From the NCBI GenBank assembly GCA_030740155.1, contig JASLXV010000058.1:22407-86406 (forward strand): a DNA stretch of 64,000 nucleotides, read 5' to 3'. This document shows positions 33,533-50,079 of this stretch, piece by piece. The number at the start of each line of letters is the position of its first letter. The first letter of the stretch is position 1. The stretch is from Dehalococcoidia bacterium. Its GTDB lineage: Bacteria > Chloroflexota > Dehalococcoidia > Lucifugimonadales > UBA3495. A model generated the notes under the pieces. It was not told the DNA's origin. It did not search any database and saw only the letters and a list, made by a program, of their open reading frames with translations. Made by a program: the position numbers and the translations under genes.

Positions 33533-34783
33533 CTAGCCATCACCTCGGCCAAGGATATCCTGCGCCAGCCGCCGCTCTTGCGCTTCGGTCGATACCTTCC
33601 GGTCCAGCTTGGCTTCCCGGAGACGCCGCAGGATTCGGCCCACCATCGGGCCGTCGGGCACGCCCATCGCCAGAAGGTCCCGGCCGCTCAAGGTGGGCGC
33701 CACGAACTGTAGCTCGTTCAAGTATTCCGCCAGCCGGCCGGCTACCCTGGGTGACCCGGCAACCCGGGAAACCGCCATCACCGCTTCCGGACACGAGCCC
33801 TCCACCAGTGAGAACAGCCGGGAACGCGGTAGGGAAGGGCCGGCAAGCTCCGCCTCCCGTTGCCGCAGCGCAGCTGTATCCCGGACCACCTGCGCCCAGG
33901 GCTTGGGCATGTTCAGCCGGTGAATCACCGTTTCCGCATCCTCCGGAGAGAGGGGGTACGTCAAGCCCGCGAGGTAGACCAGGGGGATGGTATCGCCGGT
34001 CCGATCCTCTCGGGTCCCTACGTCTTCGGCGGAGTTCAAATCCGCGGCTGCCGAGAGCCCCGCCGGGGCTTTCCCGCTTCCCAGGGCAGGATGGATAGCA
34101 GCCATTATACCCAGGTCCCAGGCCCGGGTCAGCGCCGGTCCCGGCCGGTCTTCCCGGAAGATCATCTCCAACTCGTGCCGGAAGCGGTCGGCGCCAAGGG
34201 CCGCCAGATATCCATCGGCGATGGCGCCCTCGAGCCGGGCCAGGGTTTGGGGCTCGATTCGAAACCCCAGCCGTTGTTCGTACCGGACGGCTCGAAGGAT
34301 CCGGGTGGGGTCATCCACGAAGCTGTTAGGGTGCAAGGTGCGGATAAGGCCACGGCGGAGGTCGCCCACTCCTCCATGTTGGTCCAGAACCTTCGGCCGG
34401 GTCTCTCTGAGGGGCAGGGCCAGCGCGTTCACGGCGAAATCGCGACGGGCCAGGTCGTCTTCAATAGTACCTGGGAAGACCTGTGGCAGGGCCGCCGGAT
34501 GAGGGTAGACCTCTTTGCGGGCGGAGACCATGTCGACGCGGCAGCCGGTCAGGGCCACCGTTGCCGTTCCGAACCGGGGGTGGGTCAATACCCGTCCTCC
34601 CAGGTCCTCCGCTAGTTGGCGAGCCACCTCCGGCCCGTCGCCGTCCACCACGAAATCCAGGTCCCGGACCGGCGCACCCAACAGAGCGTCGCGCACCGGC
34701 CCGCCCACCAGGAATATCGCCGGTGATCGCTCCAAGGCTCGGCGGCGGAGGGCCGTCAGTACGGACAGGTTCTCTCCGCCCAA
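33533..34783 (-). CDS. cca: CCA-adding tRNA nucleotidyltransferase / poly(A) polymerase family
   Basis: IFLVGGPVRDALLGAPVRDLDFVVDGD head-domain motif, followed by RDFAVNALA and a helical body. Confidence 0.75.
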   Translation of the reverse strand: MGGENLSVLTALRRRALERSPAIFLVGGPVRDALLGAPVRDLDFVVDGDGPEVARQLAEDLGGRVLTHPRFGTATVALTGCRVDMVSARKEVYPHPAALPQVFPGTIEDDLARRDFAVNALALPLRETRPKVLDQHGGVGDLRRGLIRTLHPNSFVDDPTRILRAVRYEQRLGFRIEPQTLARLEGAIADGYLAALGADRFRHELEMIFREDRPGPALTRAWDLGIMAAIHPALGSGKAPAGLSAAADLNSAEDVGTREDRTGDTIPLVYLAGLTYPLSPEDAETVIHRLNMPKPWAQVVRDTAALRQREAELAGPSLPRSRLFSLVEGSCPEAVMAVSRVAGSPRVAGRLAEYLNELQFVAPTLSGRDLLAMGVPDGPMVGRILRRLREAKLDRKVSTEAQERRLAQDILGRGDG

Positions 34784-34981
34784 ACTGCCTTCAAGGGCGT
34801 CCAGGAGAGCGTTAATATGCTGGAATCGCGGCGTGAAAGGCCTCCTGTCGAGGGTATTATAGCATAGGGATGGCGCGTTTCCGGCGATCTCCGGGGCGGT
34901 ACCGCCGACCCCTGGAGCTATGGCGGAGGGTCACCGGGTCAACCCCGGGCCGGGCCGCGGCGGACAGGCCCGGCGGTCTTT

Positions 34982-35009
34982 TTGACAACCCTTTCCCGCA
35001 TGGTACAAT
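34982..35009 (+). promoter_or_regulatory. Near-consensus promoter with extended -10, upstream of the DsbA-like gene
   Basis: TTGACA-(16 nt)-TGgTACAAT. GGAGG follows 8 nt before ATG 35040. Confidence 0.6.
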
Positions 35010-35039
35010 CCAAATACGAAGCCGTCCGGAGGCGATATC

Positions 35040-35672
35040 ATGGCTGAAAGTGCGATAACCACCTACTACGATTTTCGTTGACCCTTCGTGTACAATGCCG
35101 CCATGTGGCTGGCAAAGGTGGAGAAAGGCTCCGGAGAGGCCATCGAGGTGGACTGGCAACCGTTCTCGCTGGCCCAGGTTAACAGGAAAGATGAGTCAAA
35201 CCTGAAGTACTGGGAGCAGCCTGAGGTGCTGGACGGCTCCGACAATACCTTGTTGGCTCACCGGGCCGGACTGGCGGCCAAACGCCAGGGCAAGGAGGCG
35301 TTCAAGTCGTTCTTCATCGCCTTGCTCCGGGCACGCCACGAGGATAAGAAGGACCTGACCGATCGGGCGGTGATGGAAGAAGCGGCGGGAACGGCCGGGA
35401 TCGACCTGGCCCGGCTCCGGGAAGACATGGCGGACCCCGATCTACTGCGGGAGTTGGGCGAAAGTCATACCAGGGCCGTGGAAGAGTTCGGCGCCTTCGG
35501 AGTGCCCACCTTCGTTTTCCCCGGAGGCAAGACGGCGTTCCTCAAGATGTTTATCCCTCCCGACGATGAGGCGGTGGAAATGTACGACTCGCTTATGAAG
35601 GTCATGAGCGAGTTTGCCTACGTTGGGGAGATCAAGCGTCCCCAGCCGCCCTGGCCGCACAGTGTCATCTAG
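35040..35672 (+). CDS. DsbA-family thioredoxin-fold oxidoreductase with in-frame TGA (35079-35081) at the active-site Cys position; candidate selenoprotein
   Basis: ATG 35040 has its own promoter and Shine-Dalgarno sequence. It reads MAESAITTYYDFR-TGA-PFVYNAAMWLAKVEKG, continuing in frame into the ORF-track ORF (35088-35672). That ORF holds the remainder of a DsbA-like fold (FGVPTFVF cis-Pro loop) but lacks the beta1-alpha1 CxxC segment. Confidence 0.6.
35097..35113 (+). promoter_or_regulatory. SECIS-like hairpin 15 nt downstream of the TGA
   Basis: GCCGCC-AUGU-GGC(U)GGC: 6-bp stem with one bulged U and a GU-containing tetraloop. Confidence 0.35.
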
Positions 35673-35681
35673 GAGGGATTA

Positions 35682-36407
35682 GTGGCGGCCGAGGAACTGG
35701 AATCCGCTCTGGGTTTGACGTTCCGGAACCGGCAACTGCTTGAGCAGGCCCTGGTCCACCGGTCCTCTGTCAACGAGCAAGGATGGTCGCCCACCGACTC
35801 CTACGAGCGTATGGAGTACCTGGGCGACGCCGTGCTGGAGTTGGTGGTTTCCGAAGACCTCTACGGGCGCTTCCCCGACTTGAGCGAAGGGGCTTTGACC
35901 AAAGTCCGTTCCGGTCTGGTGTGCCGTGAGAGCCTGGCCCAGGTCGCCCGCCGGCTCAACCTGGGGGACCGCCTCCTGATGGGAAAGGGCGAGGAGGCCA
36001 CCGGTGGCCGTCTCCGGGAATCCACCCTGGCCGCGGCCTTCGAGGCGTTGGTGGCGGCGGTGTACCTAGACCGAGACTACGCCGAGGCCCGCCGGTTCGT
36101 CCTTCGGGTGATGGCCGAAGAGCTTGAAGGGTCCTATCGACTGGGCAGGTTGCCCGAGAACCCCAAGTCCAGCCTCCAAGAATACGTGCAGGGCCAGGGC
36201 CTGCCGGCCCCTGTCTACCGGGTGATATCCAGCGAAGGCCCCGATCACGATCCAGTCTTCACCGTCGAGGTCCTGGTCGTCGGCGAGGTGATAGGCGTGG
36301 GCCACGGCGGCAATAAAGCGGGCGCCGAGCGGACGGCGGCCGTGATCGCCCTGCAGCAGTTGACCTCGGAGTCCGGTACCGGCTCGTCCGCCGAGGATCC
36401 GAAGTAA
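35682..36407 (+). CDS. rnc: Ribonuclease III
   Basis: ERMEYLGDAVLELVVSE (RNase III signature ExLEFLGD-type), plus a C-terminal dsRBD (PKSSLQEYVQGQGLPAPVY...GHGGNKAGAERTAA). GTG start. Confidence 0.9.
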   Translation: MAAEELESALGLTFRNRQLLEQALVHRSSVNEQGWSPTDSYERMEYLGDAVLELVVSEDLYGRFPDLSEGALTKVRSGLVCRESLAQVARRLNLGDRLLMGKGEEATGGRLRESTLAAAFEALVAAVYLDRDYAEARRFVLRVMAEELEGSYRLGRLPENPKSSLQEYVQGQGLPAPVYRVISSEGPDHDPVFTVEVLVVGEVIGVGHGGNKAGAERTAAVIALQQLTSESGTGSSAEDPK

Positions 36408-36479
36408 GCCCGCCGGCGCTGAAGCCTTTCGCCATGCCGCACTGCAATCCGGTCATCGAAACCTTCGGGAAATCAAGTT

Positions 36480-36797
36480 GAGAGCGGATAGCAAAACTCC
36501 CACCAGGTCATTCCGAGTTGTCATGCCCCGGTGGGGCGCCTCCGGCAGCTTCAGACACTTGATGCCCCCCTCTCCCACCGGGAGAGGGGCCGGGGGTGAG
36601 GGGCTATTTTCAGAGCGGGAGCGAAGCCGCGAGGAATCTCAGCGTAACCACGAGATTCTTCGCTTTGCTCAGAATGACGAAGTGGCCAGAACAACGGCTT
36701 CCAGTCTTGTTACCTGCTCCAAGAATAGTCATCGCTCCTCGTTTTCCGTGAAGGGTTTTGCCGGACAGCCAGACAGCCAGACAGCCAGCTAGAAAGT
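36480..36797. repeat. Composite intergenic block of short GC-rich repeat motifs
   Basis: Contains ccctctcccaccgggagaggggccgggggtgagggg (about 36566-36604; relatives at about 56596-56635 and 56690-56724). Also contains gattcttcgctttgctcagaatgacg and 3 x cagacagc (about 36771-36797). ORF-track ORF 36478-36792 is built only of these motifs. Confidence 0.65.
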
Positions 36798-36810
36798 TTG
36801 AGGGTCATTG

Positions 36811-37767
36811 ATGCTCAGGTTTTTCAAACGCAACAAGGAAGAAACCAAGAAACGCACGGATGCGGCAGTCAAGCCCAGCCGCGATCGCTGGTTCGGGCGC
36901 ATCCTCGGCGTGCTACGATCTTCGCGACTGGACGACTCGGTGTGGGCAGAGCTGGAGGAGATCCTGATCTCTGCCGATGTCGGCGTTGAGACCTCCCTGC
37001 GGCTCGTTGAGGACCTGCGGTCCAGGGTTAAGGACAACCGGCTGGAGGACGCGGACCAGGTGTTCGAGGACCTGAAGCGATCCCTGGTCCAAGACCTGGA
37101 CCTCGAAAGCCCGGATTCCGGGGGGCTCGAGATCGGCGACTCGGATACCCCCTACGTCATCCTGATGGTGGGGGTCAACGGAGTTGGCAAGACCACCAGC
37201 ATTGCCAAGCTGGCCCACCACTTTCTGCAGATGGACAAGAAGGTGGTCCTGGGCGCGGCGGATACCTTCCGGGCGGCCGCCGCCGAGCAGTTGGAAATCC
37301 TCGGAGAGCGGGTGGGCGTAGAAGTAATTAGCCATCGCTCCGGGGCCGACCCGGGAGCGGTGGCCTACGATGCCTATCGGGCCAGCAAGGCCCGGCACGC
37401 CGACGTGTTGATCGTCGACACCGCCGGACGGTTGCACACCAAATCCAACCTGATGGAGGAGCTACGGAAGATAAACCGGGTCCTGAAACGGTTGGATCCG
37501 GCGGCGCCGCATCAGGTCATCCTGACCCTGGACGCGACCACCGGCCACAACGGCCTGGCCCAGGCCAAGGCCTTCAAAGAGGCGGTGAACTGCACCGGTA
37601 TATTCCTGGCCAAGCTCGACGGCACGGCCCGAGGAGGAATTGCCCTTGCCATCAAACAGGAGTTGCAGGTGCCGATCCTCTTCATTGGCACGGGGGAAGG
37701 CATCGACGATCTGGCGCCCTTCGACTCCAGGGAGTTCGTCGAGTCGTTACTTGCTCCCGTATCGTGA
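36811..37767 (+). CDS. ftsY: Signal recognition particle receptor FtsY
   Basis: N/G domain: [36 protein letters not shown]. Short basic N-terminus. Confidence 0.9.
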
Positions 37768-49719: not shown

Positions 49720-50079
49720 TCATCCGGTACCCTCCAGTGCGGCCTCGATTGACCTCAGGTTCGCTCCCACCACCAACCGCCCGCCGATGCGGGCCAGGGG
49801 CCGGCGGACCAACCGGGGCTCCTCGAGAATCAGCGCGAGCATCTCCTCCTCGGACAGCTCCCGGCCTGCCATGCCCTTCTGCTTCAAGCTGGGGCTGCGC
49901 CAGGCGAATAGCTGAGAGAAACCCACTTCAGAGGCCAGCTCCCGGACCTCACCCTCGGTGAACGGTTCCTTGAAGAAGTCCCGCTCGTCCAGCTCCAGGC
50001 CTTTTTGTAAGAGCAACTCTCTCACTTTGCGGCAGGACGATCAACGGGGCCACCAGTAGAACGCTACTTTATTACTCAA
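49720..50079 (-). CDS. ArsC/Spx-family thioredoxin-fold protein with in-frame TGA (50041-50043) in a U-x-x-C motif; candidate selenoprotein
   Basis: From TTG 50079 (GAGG 6 nt upstream) it reads M/L-SNKVAFYWWPR-TGA-SSCRKVRELLLQKGLELDERDFF.... ArsC/Spx proteins carry 'xxYxxPxCxxCRKAxxxL' at exactly this position. The ORF-track ORF starts after the TGA and lacks this motif. Confidence 0.6.
50007..50025 (-). promoter_or_regulatory. SECIS-like hairpin 15 nt downstream of the TGA
   Basis: The mRNA reads GUGAGAG-AGUUG-CUCUUAC: 7-bp stem (one G-U pair) with a 5-nt loop containing GU. Confidence 0.4.

Follow-up and report, generated by a model that had tools for sequence, protein, structure and literature searches.

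The DsbA-like gene and its in-frame TGA

Within a 64,000-nucleotide (nt) stretch of the genome of a Dehalococcoidia bacterium (contig JASLXV010000058.1 of assembly GCA_030740155.1), referred to below as the window, we analysed a gene for a predicted DsbA-like protein whose reading frame is interrupted close to its 5′-end by a TGA codon, which we interpret as a codon for selenocysteine (Sec, written U in motifs). The frame that begins at ATG 35040 is open to the TAG at 35670-35672, and its one interruption is the TGA at 35079-35081, codon 14, which stands in the read-through translation in the context YYDFR-U-PFVYNAAMWL. Open reading frame (ORF) calling with translation table 11 returned GTG 35088..35672 only, a product of 194 residues, and gene callers that stop at the TGA give a product of 189–194 residues without the active site. 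A sequence-only reading that preceded this analysis had described the in-frame TGA with the frame running on into the 194-residue ORF, a GVPT cis-proline loop further downstream, and a promoter and a GGAGG serving ATG 35040; translation confirmed the first, and the other elements were located where they had been placed (Table 1). The promoter agrees with the consensus at 11 of 12 positions and has a TG before the −10 element (2 sites versus 0.2 ± 0.5 in shuffles), whereas direct reading of the sequence upstream of GTG 35088 showed no Shine-Dalgarno sequence. The tryptic peptide that follows the R13 cleavage site, U-PFVYNAAMWLAK, covers residue 14.

Table 1. Features of the locus, in positions of the window
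Feature	Coordinates	Strand	Basis
Coding sequence of the probable DsbA-like selenoprotein, 210 residues	35040..35672	+	Read-through translation, Pfam, full-length alignment to 210-residue Cys homologues, AlphaFold2 model
TGA as probable selenocysteine codon (residue 14), β1/α1 junction, D-F-R-U-P-F-V	35079..35081	+	Orthologue column, AlphaFold2 model
Candidate bacterial SECIS hairpin UGCCGCC-AUGU-GGC(U)GGCA	35096..35114	+	RNAfold −9.5 kcal/mol; helix paired in Sec orthologues
G-V-P-T cis-proline loop, residues 154-157	35499..35510	+	Invariant in the alignment; directly before strand 157-160 in the AlphaFold2 model
Shine-Dalgarno GGAGG, 7 nt 5′ of ATG 35040	35028..35032	+	Direct reading
Predicted sigma-70-type promoter: TTGACA, 16-nt spacer, TG-extended TACAAT	34982..35009	+	Consensus match only
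RNase III gene (rnc), probable operon partner	35682..36407	+	ORF list; syntenic locus with Ribonuclease_3 and dsrm domains
CCA-adding enzyme / PolyA_pol family, divergent upstream gene	33533..34783	−	ORF list; PolyA_pol in syntenic locus

Sec and Cys at the TGA column

When 301 genomes of the class were searched in all six frames, 49 matches in 48 genomes were obtained, 43 of them with exactly one in-frame TGA and 5 without any; for the remaining match a TAG was reported, which lies outside the aligned core. For the comparison of columns 52 loci were extracted, with identities of 37–97%, and at the column of residue 14 the codon was TGA in 44 of these orthologues and TGC or TGT, for cysteine (Cys), in 8. 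The 12–13 codons 5′ of the TGA are conserved as a β-strand motif, h-x-V/I-Y/F-x-D-Y/F-x-U-P, the Met start lies at a constant distance of ∼12–13 codons before U across the orthologues, and the D and the U-P of the DxxUP motif are kept in all Sec orthologues. To judge from the 44 of 52 loci, Sec and not Cys is the usual state of this DsbA-like family in the class.

Among the best 120 database homologues, 107 are 187–195 residues long, that is, truncated, and 13 are of full length at 206–210 residues. Twelve of these thirteen read YDFRCPFVYNA, so that the alignment with Cys homologues proposed in the sequence-only reading places Cys exactly at the TGA column. The thirteenth (P0014) has W at this column, and its DNA has TGA translated as Trp. 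One Cys form (P0031) shares its gene order with the window, with a CCA-adding enzyme on the opposite strand followed by the DsbA-like gene, RNase III and FtsY, and this identical synteny marks it as a true orthologue. Homologues at 67–71% identity bear the source names SAR202 cluster and Dehalococcoidia.

The database lengths bear on the possibility that TGA 35079 is a true stop, in which case the product would be the 194 residues from GTG 35088 (or 189 residues), lacking the active site, and the 13 codons before the TGA would form a short leader or stay untranslated. Table-11 calling gives just such a product, and the 107 short homologues among the best 120 agree with it in length. Nevertheless we consider a true stop very improbable, because the 13 upstream codons are conserved as protein in 44 orthologues and align to the β1 strand and active site of the Cys homologues, because a GGAGG precedes ATG 35040 and no ribosome-binding site (RBS) precedes GTG 35088, because a thioredoxin fold without β1 and its nucleophile would be unstable and without function, and because the genome contains a complete Sec machinery, as described below. 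A true start at GTG 35088, which the sequence-only reading had itself raised as a contrary outcome, was not borne out: this GTG is without an RBS, and the N-terminal segment is kept in all homologues.

TGC and TGT are each one substitution away from TGA, and the codon might for this reason have arisen through an error in sequencing or assembly, or through a mutation that recently inactivated the gene and left it a pseudogene. We regard this as scarcely credible, since 44 independent genomes and contigs, at 37–97% identity, have TGA at this column, and since the remaining frame is intact and conserved. The presence of TGA in 44 orthologues and of TGC or TGT in 8 at one and the same column excludes both a miscall and a pseudogene private to this genome.

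A maximum-likelihood tree of the 52 proteins has Sec forms throughout, and Cys forms fall inside Sec clades at no fewer than four places; the tree requires five changes between Sec and Cys, at least four of which are forced by well-supported branches. This pattern fits an ancestral Sec that was repeatedly replaced by Cys, a direction of change that an unrooted tree such as this one cannot prove.

Two variations within the family were also seen. In one sub-clade (L067-L071, L073 and L065, from genomes G208, G222, G090, G144, G193, G275 and G109) the motif is D-C-[VT]-U-P-H-V, in which a Cys stands two positions ahead of Sec (CxU), and an intramolecular selenenylsulfide could form in these proteins, unlike in the window protein. 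One genome has two paralogues, both with TGA (G083:C1:2385161-2385754, L033, and 1706738-1707346, L059).

Sec machinery and genetic code

The genome (3.6 Mb in 108 contigs, 93.7% complete) contains profile matches above curated cut-offs for selA (549 bits), selB (350 bits) and selD (377 bits), together with a tRNA-Sec of 69 bits, likewise above its cut-off, which ARAGORN reports as SeC with anticodon TCA and which is located on a contig other than that of the window. Thus, all four components that the sequence-only reading had named as a check on its interpretation are present in the genome. An Rfam scan at gathering thresholds and an ARAGORN scan of the window found nothing. The selD gene (L013, G000:C32:19124-20044) has an in-frame TGA of its own in the motif CAGUAAK, and SelD is therefore a selenoprotein itself in this genome.

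An in-frame TGA could also be explained if TGA stood for one of the standard amino acids in this organism (Trp or Gly, as in genetic codes 4 or 25), and this reading draws on the cluster of P0014, a group of 147 sequences deposited with W at the residue-14 column. We judge a code of this kind extremely improbable. The W of P0014 is the choice of a gene caller on a 1.5-kb contig; moreover, TGA closes 986 of 2463 long open frames in the genome, which excludes a code with TGA as a sense codon, and the in-frame TGAs fall at Cys-equivalent redox positions in the DsbA-like gene, in selD and in an ArsC-like gene. The P0014 locus (L074 313-945) belongs to a metagenome contig on which the caller applied TGA=Trp, and its Trp is a second kind of misannotation beside truncation.

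The distribution of Sec components among related genomes was also recorded. Five genomes with the TGA form were tested, and all five have Sec components: selA was found in four, and the fifth (G107) has a tRNA-Sec of 73 bits and a Sec-containing selD. In a genome with the Cys form (G029, 97% complete) no selA, selD or tRNA-Sec was found above cut-off. Two Cys-form genomes of one genus carry selA, hence Cys forms occur also in Sec-using organisms.

Taken together, the homologues, the machinery, the genetic code and this co-occurrence allow us to exclude, with high confidence, that the TGA is a miscall, the mark of a pseudogene or a genuine stop. The decoding of UGA as Sec that the sequence-only reading had proposed is supported by the Cys/Sec column, the Sec machinery and the conserved N-terminal segment, and we hold it to be nearly certain that the gene encodes a real selenoprotein.

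The window contains a further ORF with an in-frame TGA, at 49720-50079 on the minus strand, which is ArsC/Spx-like and in which the TGA lies in WWPR-U-SSC (UxxC); it matches the catalogued ‘arsenate reductase-like UxxC’ type of selenoprotein.

A candidate SECIS hairpin

The hairpin GCCGCC-AUGU-GGC(U)GGC, described in the sequence-only reading as starting 15 nt after the TGA, was found at this distance; RNAfold adds one U-A pair, and the apical loop at 35103-35106 lies 21 nt after the TGA. The helix was tested in a gap-free alignment in codon register of 36 distinct Sec forms, with columns 17–24 and 29–36 counted from the U of UGA. In these columns 73.6% of the cells were paired, compared with 24–58% for slid controls, and the covariation score was 0.191 versus at most 0.135 in the slid controls, and none of 500 shuffles reached 0.191. 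Five core pairs form in 28–36 of the 36 sequences, and they include double changes from G-C to A-U in which a change from an Ala to a Thr codon is matched by a synonymous change from CUG to UUG for Leu. The support from covariation is moderate. In most orthologues the loop starts 20–21 nt after the UGA, and lineages without the Trp codon or with a shifted stem retain a hairpin at the same place.

A published model of the bacterial selenocysteine insertion sequence (bSECIS) (PMC13188914) specifies (i) a loop of 3–9 nt on a stem of at least 4 bp, (ii) a G in the first two loop positions, (iii) 16–37 nt from the UGA to the loop and (iv) a minimum free energy of −7.5 kcal/mol or lower. The window hairpin has a 4-nt loop on 7 pairs, a spacing of 21 nt and an energy of −9.5 kcal/mol, in agreement with (i), (iii) and (iv), and 34 of 41 Sec forms agree with all four constraints.

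Several observations on the hairpin weigh against the interpretation of the TGA as a Sec codon. In the loop AUGU the only G comes third, which departs from constraint (ii), close relatives having GUGU or AGUUUG. Five of the eight Cys forms also pass our own implementation of the model, which is too permissive in sequence of 63% GC content, and hairpin energy did not separate Sec from Cys forms (Mann–Whitney p = 0.086, on related sequences), a comparison that we set aside as evidence. When folding energy was compared with that of synonymous recodings, the orthologue mean was z = −0.27, without any excess, and RNAalifold on the 36-sequence alignment returned no consensus structure, in place of which the explicit counting of pairs was used. 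Finally, the stem lies over the codons of the conserved A-A-x-W-L segment, and coding constraint accounts for some of the conservation of the hairpin. For the window region the comparison with synonymous recodings gave z = −2.18 (p = 0.023); folding energy against recodings was rejected as a general argument since the orthologue mean is not significant.

The hairpin is therefore best described as a plausible SECIS, which lends support to the comparative case but cannot carry it alone. The sequence-only reading had used it as evidence for Sec; taken by itself, it is weaker evidence than had been implied.

Fold and active site

The read-through protein, with Cys in place of Sec, matched Pfam DSBA (PF01323) at residues 6-166 with an E-value of 3.9e-19 (69.6 bits versus a cut-off of 25.6) and Pfam Rv2466c-like (PF22234) at residues 14-200 with an E-value of 1.7e-10 (41.8 bits versus a gathering threshold of 27); no NCBIfam model matched it. 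An AlphaFold2 model, with a predicted local distance difference test score (pLDDT) of 86.9 and a predicted template-modelling score (pTM) of 0.83, has strand β1 at residues 6-10, helix α1 at 15-31, a helical insert at about 44-150, the GVPT loop at 154-157 and a strand at 157-160. In this model residue 14 lies at the N-terminus of helix α1, and the protein is predicted to have a thioredoxin fold of the DsbA type in which the TGA falls precisely on the position of the nucleophile. No second Cys or Sec is found in the whole 210-residue protein, whose motif is U-P-F-V and not CxxC. The DsbA-like thioredoxin fold with a single Sec and no resolving Cys, as put forward in the sequence-only reading, is thus upheld by the Pfam matches, the model and this motif.

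In a Foldseek search of the PDB the first match was DR2335 (7DK9/7DKA), with a template-modelling (TM) score of 0.76, 33% identity and an E-value of ∼1e-12, followed by Rv2466c with a TM score of 0.70; classical DsbAs, FrnE, and kappa GSTs and HCCA isomerases (the last two at TM 0.57–0.61) were among the lower matches. The earlier comparison had been with the Rv2466c type; the nearest relatives are of the single-Cys DR2335 type and not of the CPWC type of Rv2466c. With β1 beginning at residue 6 and the active site at residue 14, there is no room for a signal peptide, and we take the protein to be cytoplasmic.

Two segments, RHEDKKDL (residues 99-106) and ESHT (141-144), are invariant across the family and common to DR2335 (HHEDKRDL), and their residues are candidates for binding of a substrate or cofactor.

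Gene neighbourhood

In the window the gene order over 33533-37767 is cca on the minus strand, the DsbA-like gene, rnc and ftsY. The rnc gene begins 9 nt after the stop codon of the DsbA-like gene and no terminator was found between the two, which suggests that they are co-transcribed. Among 32 orthologous loci a homologue of rnc is downstream in 22, cca is upstream in 15 and ftsY is present in 10, and the adjacency of the DsbA-like gene and rnc is kept across several families of the class. As a clue to function the neighbourhood was uninformative, only these housekeeping genes (rnc, cca and ftsY) recurring in the 32 loci.

A different arrangement was seen in one family of the class (L038 1204-2109 and L039, from G037:C46 and G068:C220), where the Sec-containing DsbA-like domain follows in frame, without an intervening stop, on a ThiS-like domain that matches Pfam ThiS at 24.2 bits and ends in ...VVPFIRGG, and where a ThiF-family gene lies directly upstream of the fusion (L038 517-1173). 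The position of this ThiS fusion next to ThiF may be a clue to function. Long upstream frames had been considered as fusions at four loci: at L026 and L029 they are read-through of non-coding sequence, whereas at L038 and L039 they are the ThiS-like domains. A crotonase fusion, which would have linked the family to the name of the example in the review discussed below, was sought among the orthologues examined, and none was found.

Proposed mechanism

We consider it probable that the gene encodes a 210-residue cytoplasmic DsbA-like selenoprotein with Sec at UGA 35079-35081, acting as a monothiol-type reductase. The evidence supports decoding of the UGA by the SelA, SelB, SelD and tRNA-Sec of the genome itself, probably directed by the hairpin at 35096-35114. 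The selenolate would then attack an oxidised or electrophilic sulfur substrate, such as a disulfide or an S-thiolated protein, to yield a selenenylsulfide intermediate, which an external thiol, either a low-molecular-weight thiol or a thioredoxin- or glutaredoxin-like partner, would resolve. This would be a mechanism of the monothiol-reductase type, as in the cytoplasmic Rv2466c/DR2335 branch of DsbA proteins, and the most economical one for a single selenolate without a resolving Cys. We hold this mechanism with lower confidence than the identity as a selenoprotein, and a point against it is that we infer it entirely, the nearest solved relative being DR2335, which a review of Deinococcus thiol reductases describes as DsbA-like and cytoplasmic with one conserved Cys, and for which neither function nor expression data have been reported (PMC8945050); likewise, our search of the literature on 7DK9/DR2335 found no functional data.

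The protein might also be a true selenoprotein that is neither a disulfide nor a de-thiolation reductase, resembling instead kappa GSTs or HCCA isomerases, or transferring sulfur or selenium on carriers of the ThiS/MoaD type, in which case it would handle persulfides or thiocarboxylates on these carriers. Such a role is consistent with the recovery of kappa GSTs and HCCA isomerases by Foldseek, and this support is tempered by TM scores (0.57–0.61) much weaker than those of DR2335 and Rv2466c. It is likewise consistent with the in-frame ThiS(GG)-Sec-DsbA fusion beside a ThiF-family gene in G037 and G068, an arrangement found in one family of the class only, while in the window, as at 22 of the 32 loci, the gene has housekeeping neighbours (rnc, cca, ftsY). 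The conserved RHEDKKDL and ESHT segments, common to DR2335, suggest a specific ligand site; nevertheless, Sec or Cys at the N-terminus of α1 is a hallmark of redox-active proteins of the thioredoxin fold. On balance we consider such a transferase or relay function unlikely, and a monothiol-type reductase remains our preferred description.

Relation to known systems

DsbA-like selenoproteins have been known since a study of the metagenome of the Sargasso Sea, which gave nine sequences with the motif UxxC (Zhang, Fomenko and Gladyshev 2005, PMC1088965), in line with the statement in the sequence-only reading that such proteins were known from metagenomes; by 2016 they had been found in 41 organisms (Peng et al. 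2016, PMC5029168). The review of Zhang et al. 2026 distinguishes form 1 (UxxC) from form 2 (PF01323, DxxUP), credits form 2 to PMC5029168 and gives MDP6049977.1 as an example record (PMC13188914). By both listed features, domain and motif, the window protein appears to be a member of form 2, with which it has in common PF01323, the motif D11-F-R-U14-P15 and a single Sec without a CxxC partner. With form 1 it has in common the DsbA-like fold, the placing of Sec where the N-terminal nucleophile stands and, soon after the UGA, a SECIS hairpin, here a candidate; form 1, however, keeps a resolving Cys, whereas the U-P-F-V of the window protein would allow no intramolecular selenenylsulfide within the motif.

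The best match both by sequence and by fold is DR2335 of Deinococcus radiodurans (7DK9, and 7DKA with C24S). In phmmer (E-value 2.1e-24) query residues 8-203 align to residues 24-229 of the chain, with C24 aligned to U14, and Cys24 is the residue mutated in 7DKA. The motif of DR2335 is YFDFLCPYAW, HEDK+DL and C-terminal KRP motifs are common to both proteins, and both are cytoplasmic, but DR2335 has Cys where the window protein has Sec. Rv2466c of Mycobacterium tuberculosis (PF22234; 4NXI, 4ZIL) is similar in its cytoplasmic DsbA-like fold and differs in being a dithiol CPWC, mycothiol-dependent reductase with ∼22% identity, whereas the window protein has UPFV and no resolving Cys. Classical DsbA, a periplasmic dithiol oxidase, has in common with the window protein a thioredoxin fold with a helical insertion and a cis-proline loop, as seen in the AlphaFold2 model and the Foldseek matches; it is characterised by a CxxC motif and a signal peptide, and the window protein has neither.

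The type of selenoprotein is hence already catalogued, and the window gene is a new, well-supported member of it in Chloroflexota and not a new system. A wider and rather improbable reading would be that the DR2335-type family consists predominantly of selenoproteins in this class of Dehalococcoidia/SAR202 type, with Sec ancestral and replaced by Cys at least four times, and that it acts on sulfur carriers of the ThiS/MoaD type, whose persulfide, thiocarboxylate or acyl-disulfide species it would reduce or transfer. The role on sulfur carriers in this reading is hinted at by the in-frame ThiS(GG)-DsbA(Sec) fusion beside ThiF in one lineage; if true, it would give the family, to which no function is at present assigned, a specific one. 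For annotation, the window gene and about nine-tenths of its close database homologues are deposited truncated, without the catalytic residue, and because of these truncated deposits the redox repertoire of abundant marine and subsurface Chloroflexota is under-read. The value of the present analysis lies in correcting this annotation and in the view it gives of a family dominated by Sec throughout the class.

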